This document shows positions 18,972 to 43,873 of a stretch of DNA of 64,000 bases, piece by piece. The position numbers were made by a program, and so were the translations under genes. The stretch lies in NCBI RefSeq assembly GCF_024223415.1, contig NZ_CP100500.1. One strand, written 5' to 3'. Numbering within the stretch: the stretch's first letter is position 1; each line of letters starts with the position of its first letter. The notes beneath the pieces are model-generated. The model searched no databases, had not been told where the DNA came from, and saw nothing but the letters and a program-made list of their open reading frames with translations. The DNA is from Escherichia coli (lineage in GTDB: Bacteria; Pseudomonadota; Gammaproteobacteria; Enterobacterales; Enterobacteriaceae).

Positions 18972-18997
18972 TTAAGTTGTAGTATAAATACACCTTA
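18972..18997 (+). promoter_or_regulatory. Imperfect inverted repeat upstream of ygbA, possible NsrR-type operator
   Basis: AAGTTGTAgtataaaTACACCTT lies 17-40 bp upstream of the ygbA ATG; ygbA is a known NO-responsive gene. Match to the NsrR consensus is only partial. Confidence 0.3.
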
Positions 18998-25288: not shown

Positions 25289-25639
25289 TCACTCCTGGTC
25301 TATTTCTATCCGCCGAATCTGTAAACCGTCGTCTGCCACAATCTGTAGCATGTCACCATGACACTGTGGACAGCGGCGGACGCGCTGGGTCAGTAGCGTC
25401 ACATACTGTTGGCATGTTTCACACCAGCATTCGGCCTCTTGTTCTTCGAGGTGCAGTTTACAACCTTCCGCCACGCTGCCGCGGCAAACCAGATCAAAAC
25501 AAAAGGCAAGAGAGCTGGTTTCGACACAAGAAAATGCGCCAATTTTGAGCCAGACCCCAGTTACGCGTTTTGCGCCGTGTTTTGCGGCCTGCTGTTCGAT
25601 CAATTCCAGTGCCCGTTGGCAGAGGGTTATTTCGTGCAT
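25289..25639 (-). CDS. hypA: Hydrogenase nickel-insertion protein HypA
   Basis: Start at MHEITLCQ (116 aa); zinc-finger CxxC...CPQC. Confidence 0.94.
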   Translation of the reverse strand: MHEITLCQRALELIEQQAAKHGAKRVTGVWLKIGAFSCVETSSLAFCFDLVCRGSVAEGCKLHLEEQEAECWCETCQQYVTLLTQRVRRCPQCHGDMLQIVADDGLQIRRIEIDQE

Positions 25640-25668: not shown

Positions 25669-25686
25669 AAGCAATAATTGTGCCAG
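25669..25686 (-). promoter_or_regulatory. sigma54 (-24/-12) promoter for the hyp operon
   Basis: Minus-strand reading CTGGCACaattaTTGCT, with GG and GC 12 bp apart, about 30 bp upstream of hypA. Confidence 0.7.
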
Positions 25687-25710: not shown

Positions 25711-25740
25711 ATGTCGATGATGTCGAAATGACACGTCGAC
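25711..25740. promoter_or_regulatory. Putative FhlA upstream activating sequence in the hypA-hycA intergenic region
   Basis: atgtcgatgatgtcgaaatgacacgtcgac; a near-identical element recurs at 26354-26378. Confidence 0.5.
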
Positions 25741-25798
25741 ACGGCGACGAAATTCATCTTTAGCTTAAAAATCGTTTTAATAACAATGAATTAAAAGT

Positions 25799-25814
25799 TG
25801 GCACAGAAAATGCT
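25799..25814 (+). promoter_or_regulatory. sigma54 (-24/-12) promoter for the hyc operon
   Basis: TGGCACagaaaaTGCT, with GG and GC 12 bp apart, about 40 bp upstream of the hycA ATG. Confidence 0.7.
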
Positions 25815-25850
25815 TAAAGCTGGCATCTCTGTTAAACGGGTAACCTGACA

Positions 25851-26312
25851 ATGACTATTTGGGAAATAAGCGAGAAAGCCGATTACATCGCACAGCGGCA
25901 TCGTCGCCTACAGGACCAGTGGCACAACTACTGCAATTCGCTGGTTCAGGGGATCACGTTATCGAAAGCGCGCCTGCATCACGCCATGAGCTGCGCGCCG
26001 GACAAAGAACTCTGTTTCGTCCTTTTTGAACATTTTCGTATTTACGTCACCCTGGCGGATGGCTTTAACAGCCACACCATCGAGTATTACGTCGAAACAA
26101 AAGAGGGCGAAGACAAACAGCGGATTGCGCAGGCGCAACTGAGCATTGACGGCATGATTGATGGCAAGGTCAACATCCGCGATCGCGAACAGGTTCTGGA
26201 ACACTATCTCGAAAAAATCGCTGGCGTTTACGACAGCTTATACACCGCCATTGAAAACAATGTGCCGGTGAATTTAAGCCAACTGGTAAAGGGACAAAGC
26301 CCGGCAGCATGA
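25851..26312 (+). CDS. hycA: Formate hydrogenlyase regulatory protein HycA
   Basis: 153 aa; matches HycA; first gene of hyc operon. Confidence 0.94.
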   Translation: MTIWEISEKADYIAQRHRRLQDQWHNYCNSLVQGITLSKARLHHAMSCAPDKELCFVLFEHFRIYVTLADGFNSHTIEYYVETKEGEDKQRIAQAQLSIDGMIDGKVNIRDREQVLEHYLEKIAGVYDSLYTAIENNVPVNLSQLVKGQSPAA

Positions 26313-26353
26313 GCTGAGGCTTTGCCCGTTTTGCAGGCGTTACGCCTGTTTGG

Positions 26354-26408
26354 GGATGGGCGTGTCGATGAGTGTCGAAAATGACATTTCATCGGCATGT
26401 TTTCGTCA
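26354..26408. promoter_or_regulatory. Second putative FhlA upstream activating sequence (hycA-hycB intergenic)
   Basis: gtgtcgatgagtgtcgaaaatgaca (26354-26378) plus gtcaaaaatgaca (26396-26408); shares the GTCGAAA(A)TGACA core with 25711-25733. Confidence 0.5.
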
Positions 26409-26436
26409 AAAATGACAATCACCTGAGGAATGCCTG

Positions 26437-27048
26437 GTGAATCGTTTTGTAATTGCTGACTCCACGCTCTGTATCGGCTGCCACACTTGTGAGGCCGCCT
26501 GTTCAGAGACGCATCGCCAGCACGGCCTGCAATCAATGCCGCGCCTGAGAGTGATGCTGAATGAAAAAGAATCTGCGCCGCAGCTCTGTCACCACTGTGA
26601 AGATGCACCCTGCGCGGTGGTCTGCCCGGTTAACGCCATCACCCGCGTTGATGGGGCCGTGCAGTTGAATGAAAGCCTGTGCGTAAGCTGCAAGCTGTGC
26701 GGCATCGCCTGCCCGTTTGGCGCAATTGAATTTTCCGGCAGCCGTCCGCTGGATATTCCTGCAAATGCCAATACCCCGAAAGCGCCACCGGCACCGCCTG
26801 CTCCGGCGCGTATCAGTACGCTGCTTGACTGGGTGCCGGGTATTCGCGCGATCGCCGTCAAATGTGACCTTTGCAGTTTTGATGAACAAGGTCCGGCCTG
26901 CGTGCGGATGTGCCCGACTAAAGCCCTGCATCTGGTGGATAACACCGATATCGCCCGCGTCAGCAAACGTAAGCGTGAGCTGACCTTTAATACGGACTTT
27001 GGCGATCTCACCTTGTTTCAGCAGGCTCAAAGTGGAGAGGCTAAATGA
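26437..27048 (+). CDS. hycB: Formate hydrogenlyase subunit 2 (4Fe-4S ferredoxin-type)
   Basis: 203 aa; multiple CxxCxxCxxxCP motifs. Confidence 0.95.
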   Translation: MNRFVIADSTLCIGCHTCEAACSETHRQHGLQSMPRLRVMLNEKESAPQLCHHCEDAPCAVVCPVNAITRVDGAVQLNESLCVSCKLCGIACPFGAIEFSGSRPLDIPANANTPKAPPAPPAPARISTLLDWVPGIRAIAVKCDLCSFDEQGPACVRMCPTKALHLVDNTDIARVSKRKRELTFNTDFGDLTLFQQAQSGEAK

Positions 27049-38032: not shown

Positions 38033-38046
38033 ACATTGTCATCACA

Positions 38047-38083
38047 TGTCATCGTCACTAGTGTCGATGACATCTTTTTTCCT
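38047..38083 (+). terminator. ascG intrinsic terminator
   Basis: ATGTCATCG-tcactagtgt-CGATGACAT followed by cttttttcc, 15 bp after ascG stop. Confidence 0.7.
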
Positions 38084-38180
38084 GCATTATAGAAATTAAT
38101 TTCCTTAAATAACAGTGAATTAAAAACTGGCATGATTTGTGAATGTATCGGCGCATTAACTGTCATTGCTGGAGAATTTG

Positions 38181-43857: not shown

Positions 43858-43873
43858 TGCAGATTGCGTGCCA
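43858..43873 (-). promoter_or_regulatory. sigma54 promoter of norVW
   Basis: Minus-strand CTGGCACgcaatCTGCA, with GG and GC 12 bp apart, about 48 bp upstream of the norV ATG. Confidence 0.75.

Follow-up and report, generated by a model that had tools for sequence, protein, structure and literature searches.

A repeated element on both sides of hycA very probably marks the two FhlA enhancers of the divergent hyc and hyp operons

What are the nearly identical short elements that stand on either side of hycA, in the non-coding DNA before it and again in the spacer behind it? FhlA is a sigma54-dependent enhancer-binding protein that responds to formate. Its enhancers at hyc and hyp are already known, a textbook regulatory element, and FhlA is reported to bind at both places: between the two promoters, and between hycA and hycB. 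An earlier note on this DNA read the repeat as the two upstream activating sequences (UASs) for FhlA, and the analysis described here comes to the same answer. With a probability of about 0.88, the elements are the conserved cores of two FhlA UASs, or enhancers, of the divergent hyc and hyp operons. Support comes from a published FhlA site matrix (PMC7658346), from sigma54 promoters seen by ChIP-seq, from islands of conservation, from helical spacing, and from similar arrays elsewhere in the regulon. The re-identification validates the earlier note: it recovered both enhancers of a classic sigma54 divergon from the bare sequence, even the unusual one, which stands some 700 bp off within the adjacent operon.

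The window (the whole 64-kb stretch of DNA that was analysed) is the hyp-hyc-asc-hydN-nor region of E. coli. Its gene map was taken from a 41-kb annotated stretch of an identical strain, with window positions obtained by adding 5599 to the locus positions; genes and elements are collected in Table 1. The fhlA gene itself sits at the end of the hyp operon, within the same window. The 901 bases around the element are chromosomal and 95-100% identical in 5425 of 5426 complete E. coli genomes, where they are annotated as hypA, hycA, and hycB. All three elements read identically in K-12, whose RefSeq record carries no binding-site features in the region.

Table 1. Genes and sequence elements of the locus, in window coordinates. 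Conservation is the mean fraction of species sharing the window's base.
Feature	Positions	Strand	Sequence	Conservation	Remarks
fhlA and hypEDCBA		minus			from the annotated stretch of the identical strain
hypA	25289-25639	minus			ATG at 25639
hyp sigma54 -24/-12 element	25670-25685	minus	TGGCACAATTATTGCT	0.81	no mismatch to the scan pattern
Copy 1 extended, hypA-hycA intergenic enhancer (UAS)	25711-25737		ATGTCGATGATGTCGAAATGACACGTC	0.85	copy 1 of the earlier note plus the conserved CGTC after it
A+T-rich IHF-like segment	25779-25795	plus	AATAACAATGAATTAAA		one mismatch to WATCAANNNNTTR; between enhancer and hyc promoter
hyc sigma54 -24/-12 element	25799-25814	plus	TGGCACAGAAAATGCT	0.79	one mismatch to the scan pattern
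Remainder of the hypA-hycA intergenic region				0.49	
hycA	25851-26312	plus			ORF; RefSeq 'formate hydrogenlyase regulator HycA'; FhlA antagonist gene; separates the two enhancers
Stretch past the hycA stop	26313-26361			0.29	
Copy 2	26362-26386		GTGTCGATGAGTGTCGAAAATGACA	0.85	TGTCGA at 26363-26368 plus dyad TGTC-GAAAAT-GACA at 26373-26386
Predicted NsrR 11-1-11 site	26379-26401		AAATGACATTTCATCGGCATGTT		extends from the right half of the copy-2 dyad, which it overlaps, through the spacer to copy 3
Spacer between the dyads	26387-26400			0.52	
Copy 3 extended	26401-26417		TTTCGTCAAAAATGACA	0.94	dyad CGTC-AAAAAT-GACA at 26404-26417
hycB	26437-27048	plus			followed by hycC-I, plus strand
ascBFG, then hydN-hypF, then norVW and norR					downstream of hyc in the annotated stretch; hydN start 38181

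The repeat is real, though the coordinates of copies 2 and 3 were off. Copy 1 lies exactly at the position stated in the earlier note (25711-25733; ATGTCGATGATGTCGAAATGACA). The other two strings are both present, but each was placed too low: copy 2, put at 26354-26378, lies 8 nt higher at 26362-26386, and copy 3 (GTCAAAAATGACA), put at 26396-26408, lies 9 nt higher at 26405-26417. An identity of about 90% between the first two was a fair estimate, as 22 of 25 columns (88%) agree over the full strings, with one mismatch and two 1-nt gaps. Taken as TGTCGATGA-TGTCG-AAATGACA (25712-25733) and TGTCGATGAGTGTCGAAAATGACA (26363-26386), the two copies are identical at all 22 aligned bases, again with two 1-nt gaps. 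Smith-Waterman local alignment of both non-coding regions gave a score of 34, and none of the 2000 dinucleotide shuffles (16.0 ± 2.3; highest score, 27) came up to it. Moreover, copy 2 is the best match to copy 1, besides copy 1 itself, on either strand of the whole 64 kb, and the shared GTCGAAAATGACA with at most one mismatch occurs in the window only at 26374-26386 and 26405-26417.

The setting of the copies is also as proposed, copy 1 between the hyp and hyc -24/-12 elements, and copies 2 and 3 inside the hycA-hycB spacer (Table 1). The promoter elements were found by a scan with the pattern TGGCAC-N5-TTGCW, and both are backed by sigma54 ChIP-seq (PMC4591121): the hyp element is identical to site OS28 (CTGGCACAATTATTGCT, listed for hypA at a distance of 20), and the hyc element corresponds to site OS27 (hycA, distance 26), where K-12 differs by one base. 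Salmonella equivalents of both sites are given in PMC3844500. With +1 placed about 12 nt past the GC of the -12 element, transcription would start at about 25659 for hyp and about 25825 for hyc, respectively 20 nt before the hypA ATG and 26 nt before the hycA ATG (25851), in agreement with the distances of 20 and 26 in PMC4591121. Counted from these predicted starts, copy 1 spans -114 to -92 for hyc and -52 to -74 for hyp. Copy 2 falls at +537 to +561 from the hyc start and -703 to -727 from the hyp start, and copy 3 at +580 to +592 and -746 to -758. A search of the region for an internal sigma70 promoter or a terminator gave nothing above chance.

An A+T-rich, IHF-like segment separates copy 1 from the hyc promoter (Table 1). 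The exact IHF consensus stands 18-19 bp before the -24 element in 26 of 81 species, and a near-identical A+T-rich block, AATAACAGTGAATTAAAAACTGGCAT, precedes hydN. IHF is listed as an activator of hyc and hyp (PMC2636881); this listing and the consensus support a predicted IHF-type bend in the DNA that leads from copy 1 to the hyc promoter.

How closely do the elements follow published descriptions of FhlA sites? A 14-column count matrix from 13 characterised sites (PMC7658346, Table 2) has the consensus TG(A/T)C-(A/G)A(A/T)(A/G)AT-G(A/T)CA. When both strands of the window were ranked by this matrix (about 128,000 positions), first place went to 26373-26386 in copy 2 (TGTCGAAAATGACA; 16.8 bits), second to 25712-25725 in copy 1 (TGTCGATGATGTCG; 15.3 bits), and sixth to 26404-26417, the copy-3 dyad (12.5 bits). 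The test is partly circular, since the window sites were probably among the 13 used; the ranks therefore speak for identity with the published sites and not for an independent prediction. (Rebuilding the 13 sites from K-12 regulatory regions was tried and abandoned with too few compatible E. coli candidates, so the matrix probably includes sites of other species or in other registers.)

Another FhlA consensus, CATTTCGTACGAAATG, is attributed to Leonhartsberger et al. 2000 in PMC4987338. As a contiguous 16-mer it has no good fit in the window, the best being 5 mismatches at 26399. The motif in the earlier note has the half-site CGAAATG of this consensus at its centre, and the two consensus strings thus differ in register. 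The exact FhlA contact bases within the elements are uncertain. Set against the FhlA UASs of the E. coli formate regulon, the elements share locus, organism, and position relative to the sigma54 promoters, and they match the published matrix; there is no substantive difference, save that the register of the published 16-mer is not that of the 13-14-mer proposed earlier.

The half-sites are laid out with a helical rhythm. Extended copy 1 holds TGTC at 25712 and 25721, GACA at 25730, and CGTC at 25734. In the downstream array, TGTC/GACA-type half-sites start at 26363, 26373, 26383, 26394, 26404, and 26414, and because the steps between them are 10, 10, 11, 10, and 10 bp, all six share one face of the helix; the copy-3 dyad follows the copy-2 dyad by 31 bp, start to start. 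According to PMC11291172, which cites Leonhartsberger 2000, FhlA binds DNA from one side with its helix-turn-helix, and half-site stepping of about 10 bp fits one-sided binding of this kind. The steps in copy 1 are 9 bp, as against 10 bp in copy 2. The two arrays are therefore not rigid copies of each other, and one rigid site model cannot describe both.

Comparison across species sets the elements apart from their surroundings. A HycA scan of species-representative genomes yielded 80 loci in genera ranging from Escherichia to Kosakonia, where HycA is 63-99% identical; 260 bp upstream of hycA and 190 bp past its stop were aligned at each. The copies and the sigma54 elements emerge as islands (Table 1). 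Within the downstream array, TGTCGA (26363-68), TGTCG (26373-77), and GACA (26383-86) are invariant or nearly so in the 70 distinct sequences, and TCGTCAAAAATGAC (26403-26416) is strictly invariant in them; TTTCGTCAAAAATGAC (26401-16) is conserved to at least 95% at every position across the 80 species. The comparison thereby defines a core, TGWCGA-N3-4-TGWCGAAA(A)TGACA plus TTTCGTCAAAAATGAC, that is cleaner than the two published consensus strings with their conflicting registers.

Spacing is similarly restricted. The distance from the enhancer core to the hyc -24 element takes only the values 43, 54-57, or 65-66 bp; that from the hyp promoter to the enhancer core, only 33-35 or 43-46 bp; and that from TGTCGA at the start of element 2 (26363) to the copy-3 core TCGTCAAAAATGA (26403), start to start, only 27-31 or 37-40 bp. 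Enhancer-promoter spacing thus shifts in steps of roughly one helical turn. Conservation and phased spacing lend indirect support to a need for the sites in formate- and FhlA-dependent transcription. The distance from the hyp promoter to copy 3 is scattered between 653 and 738 bp, as expected for a long loop of about 700 bp.

The general mechanism of enhancer-binding proteins, their UASs, and IHF-assisted looping (PMC7175178) provides the frame for a specific model. FhlA would bind arrays of TGTC/GACA-type half-sites that follow one another at intervals of about a helical turn, along one face of the DNA. Sigma54 holoenzyme would wait in a closed complex at the hyc -24/-12 element; FhlA on the intergenic array, some 100 bp before hyc transcription starts, would be brought to it by an IHF-assisted bend, and ATP hydrolysis would then open the promoter. 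The hycA-hycB array would act likewise on the hyp promoter, looping over about 700-750 bp. This pairing, the intergenic array with hyc and the hycA-hycB array with hyp, is reportedly that of Lutz 1990, Schlensog 1994, and Hopper 1994. Both arrays may serve both promoters, because an enhancer can work from afar and whichever way round it lies. A full-text literature search, with the primary footprint papers outside its reach, found no statement that places the hyp enhancer between hycA and hycB. The extent of the FhlA footprint, the enhancer-promoter pairing, and the oligomeric state of FhlA on the DNA belong to the inferred part of the model.

Could the downstream element primarily serve a different regulator? 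It has been caught in vivo with the NO-sensitive repressor NsrR, an overlap that the earlier note does not have. In ChIP-seq of E. coli CFT073, one of the two strongest NsrR peaks lies between hycA and hycB, with the highest -log10 P in Table 2 of PMC5320621 (523.8) and the second-highest enrichment there (16.2-fold). Its summit, 59 bp before the hycB ATG, corresponds to about position 26378, inside the copy-2 dyad, and the site listed for hycB in Table 4 of that paper is identical to the window at 26379-26401. This segment has an 11-1-11 inverted-repeat form resembling AAGATGCATTT-N-AAATGCATCTT. Scored with an NsrR matrix rebuilt from 24 published sites, the hycB site and ygbA left out, it ranks second in the window at 15.2 bits, with about 0.1 such hits expected per 64 kb; first is the known ygbA operator (18974-18996; 22.5 bits). 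Across Escherichia, Salmonella, and Citrobacter the spacer varies in sequence and the NsrR-like features are kept; where the Citrobacter spacer changes, the NsrR score is retained or improved. On this explanation the site would be an NsrR operator first, and its similarity to copy 1 secondary.

The distribution of the site among genera argues the other way. Among the species compared, only those three genera score 12 bits or higher for NsrR, and the others fall below that value; the NsrR-like site is absent in Klebsiella, Kluyvera, and Kosakonia, and the Enterobacter spacer is shorter by a deletion of about 10 bp. However, all genera keep TGTCGA, TGTCG, GACA, and TTTCGTCAAAAATGAC unchanged, and hence the most conserved bases lie outside the NsrR site or only at its edge. 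Copy 1 lacks a strong NsrR peak, the nearest counterpart being a weak, 2.7-fold peak inside hypA (PMC5320621). The ChIP experiment used tagged, expressed NsrR, and an effect of NsrR on hyc and hyp expression is not separable there from that of nitrate (PMC5320621). The same study found hycB and hypAB down in nitrate-grown cells, which is not diagnostic of NsrR because formate and nitrate control also predict the drop. That the element is primarily an NsrR operator is possible but, on this evidence, doubtful.

NsrR occupancy of this spacer in vivo is a point against the FhlA reading. The dyad pair looks like a universal, ancient feature, and the NsrR site like a clade-specific overlay. With the NsrR operators at ytfE, hcp, hmp, and ygbA, the hycB site has in common an inverted-repeat matrix fit and an in vivo ChIP-seq peak. 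It differs in lying between two genes of one operon, atop an enhancer, with no sigma70 promoter beneath, and it is a weaker match than the ygbA operator in the same window. A site placed between the downstream dyads could let a nitric oxide sensor compete with FhlA. An NsrR operator would, in Escherichia, Salmonella, and Citrobacter, have been inserted between, and partly over, the FhlA dyads. Holo-NsrR and FhlA might then compete or interfere on about 55 bp, so that the sigma54-dependent induction of hyp-fhlA by formate, and possibly that of hyc, would be gated by NO. This scenario, drawn from the arrangement of the sites, is speculative and rather unlikely. FhlA is not mentioned in PMC5320621, and a full-text literature search found no paper linking NsrR and FhlA at the hycA-hycB site. 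The overlap offers a modest lead, open to test, on how NO sensing and hydrogen metabolism might interact; the small interest that the locus still holds comes from this overlap and from TTTCGTCAAAAATGAC, whose invariance is unusually strict.

A role in the hyc mRNA is very unlikely as the explanation of the downstream element. Here the inverted repeat TGTCGATGAGTGTC / GACATTTCATCGGCA, together with the invariant copy 3, would form a hairpin or leader affecting hycB translation or transcript stability. The region is indeed transcribed within the hyc operon, the E. coli sequence can be drawn as a stem of 14 pairs, and copy 3 ends about 20 nt before the conserved Shine-Dalgarno sequence (ribosome-binding site) of hycB. 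Yet the hairpin around copy 2 finds no support in the 70 distinct sequences: pairing cells make up 80.7%, against 80.2% in column shuffles; 3 pairs are changed on both sides, against 2.9 expected; the outer stem pairs are broken in 22-35 sequences; and the covariation score is no higher than that of the structure slid by -1. No Rfam family matched with E below 0.8. Moreover, the same element stands, as copy 1, in a non-transcribed intergenic region. (The copy-3 core is more constrained than a typical activator site, and a second function in the mRNA or its translation may be superimposed on it.)

A chance match or a functionless remnant of local duplication can be dismissed: the 13-mer GTCGAAAATGACA at up to two mismatches does have only 3 matches in the window against 1.9 expected, which is not above chance, but no shuffle attained the gapped 24-nt match, both copies are conserved islands in genera whose HycA is only 63-75% identical, and the helical-step spacing is kept, so that the conservation data refute it.

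If the elements are FhlA enhancers, as preferred here, do other promoters under FhlA control carry similar arrays? The FhlA UASs of the formate regulon (hyc, hyp, fdhF, hydN-hypF, and hyf) were reportedly described by Lutz in 1990, Schlensog and Hopper in 1994, and Leonhartsberger in 2000. In the window, hydN has TGTCATCACATGTCATCGTCACTAGTGTCGATGACA upstream of the sigma54 site CTGGCATGATTTGTGAA, the latter a published ChIP-seq site (PMC4591121). In K-12, CGTCAAAACTGACG and TTTTTCGTCAGAG precede TGGCATAAAAGATGCA at fdhF by about 60-100 bp, and at hyf CGACACGGGTGTCGAA stands upstream of TGGCATCCTTTATGCA. When the upstream regions of hyc, hydN, fdhF, and hyf were aligned together, they were similar only in patches. 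The regulon thus shares a theme, (T/C)G(T/A)C and G(A/T)C(A/G) in arrays, rather than a strict motif.

Comparable enhancers are found at other sigma54 promoters. The NorR enhancer at norVW, with three GT-N7-AC sites, and the GlrR sites (TGTC-N10-GACA; PMC2831303) likewise consist of several short dyad half-sites upstream of a -24/-12 element, on which an AAA+ activator oligomer assembles. The FhlA arrangement differs from both in having one array about 700 bp away, inside the divergent operon. NorR differs further in its signal, sensing NO where FhlA senses formate. The norV promoter and norR are part of the same window, the norV sigma54 site being at 43858-43873.

Within the hycA-hycB spacer, the third FhlA-type dyad copy contains a block of exceptional conservation. 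Each of its positions is at least 95% conserved across 80 enterobacterial species, and TCGTCAAAAATGAC within it is strictly invariant in this set. The same species keep the block with HycA identity down to 63%. Conservation of the block exceeds that of both the sigma54 promoters and the hycB start. This constraint is stricter than expected of a single pair of activator half-sites, and the alignment thus suggests an additional constraint on these bases.

A predicted NsrR site, together with the published ChIP-seq peak to which it belongs, lies between and over both FhlA-type dyads of the spacer. In the species alignment, this site is found only in Escherichia, Salmonella, and Citrobacter. The NsrR ChIP-seq paper (PMC5320621) makes no mention of FhlA. 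The ygbA site served as a positive control for the NsrR matrix: the top match in the window (22.5 bits) lies immediately upstream of this known NsrR target.

Features of the hyp-hyc, ygbA, hydN, and norV regions, with positions in the window
Feature	Sequence	Position	Strand	Remarks
Conserved copy-3 block	TTTCGTCAAAAATGAC	26401-26416		hycA-hycB spacer
Predicted NsrR 11-1-11 site	AAATGACATTTCATCGGCATGTT	26379-26401		belongs to a published NsrR ChIP-seq peak
NsrR-matrix match, ygbA	AAGTTGTAGTATAAATACACCTT	18974-18996		
Sigma54-like -24/-12 match	TGGCACAACTACTGCA	25920-25935	+	inside hycA, hyc direction; one mismatch
Hairpin-forming inverted repeat 1		26283-26301 with 26318-26336		around and after hycA stop codon
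Hairpin-forming inverted repeat 2	CAGGCG-TTA-CGCCTG	26334-26348		perfect; followed by TTTGGGG
TGTC/GACA array	TGTCATCACATGTCATCGTCACTAGTGTCGATGACA	within 38040-38150		hydN upstream region
A+T block and -24 element	AATAACAGTGAATTAAAAACTGGCAT	within 38040-38150		hydN upstream region
Sigma54 element, norV promoter	TGGCACGCAATCTGCA	43858-43873	-	agrees with published ChIP-seq site

The hycA gene itself contains a sigma54-like match, overlapping codons QWHNYCN, which is absent among the sigma54 ChIP-seq sites listed from PMC4591121. It forms an inverted-repeat pair with the hyp promoter. Two further inverted repeats, around and after the hycA stop codon, fall where conservation of the spacer is lowest (0.29); the terminator scan called neither of them.

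Dyad geometry differs among genera. In three Klebsiella and Raoultella loci, aligned to window positions 25721-25733, the intergenic enhancer core reads GTCGTCATCGACATGTC rather than TGTCGAAATGACACGTC. Here, as at the E. coli hydN site, 3 nt separate the TGTC and GACA halves of the dyad, so a spacing of 5-6 nt between half-sites is not a fixed rule.

Upstream of hydN, the A+T block and -24 element are nearly identical to their hyc counterpart, AATAACAATGAATTAAAAGTTGGCAC. With its TGTC/GACA array as well, the region appears, from its sequence, to be a third promoter module of the window that depends on FhlA. The norV element's agreement with the published site brings the sigma54 promoters in the window to four, with two different GAF-domain proteins, FhlA and NorR, as their activators.
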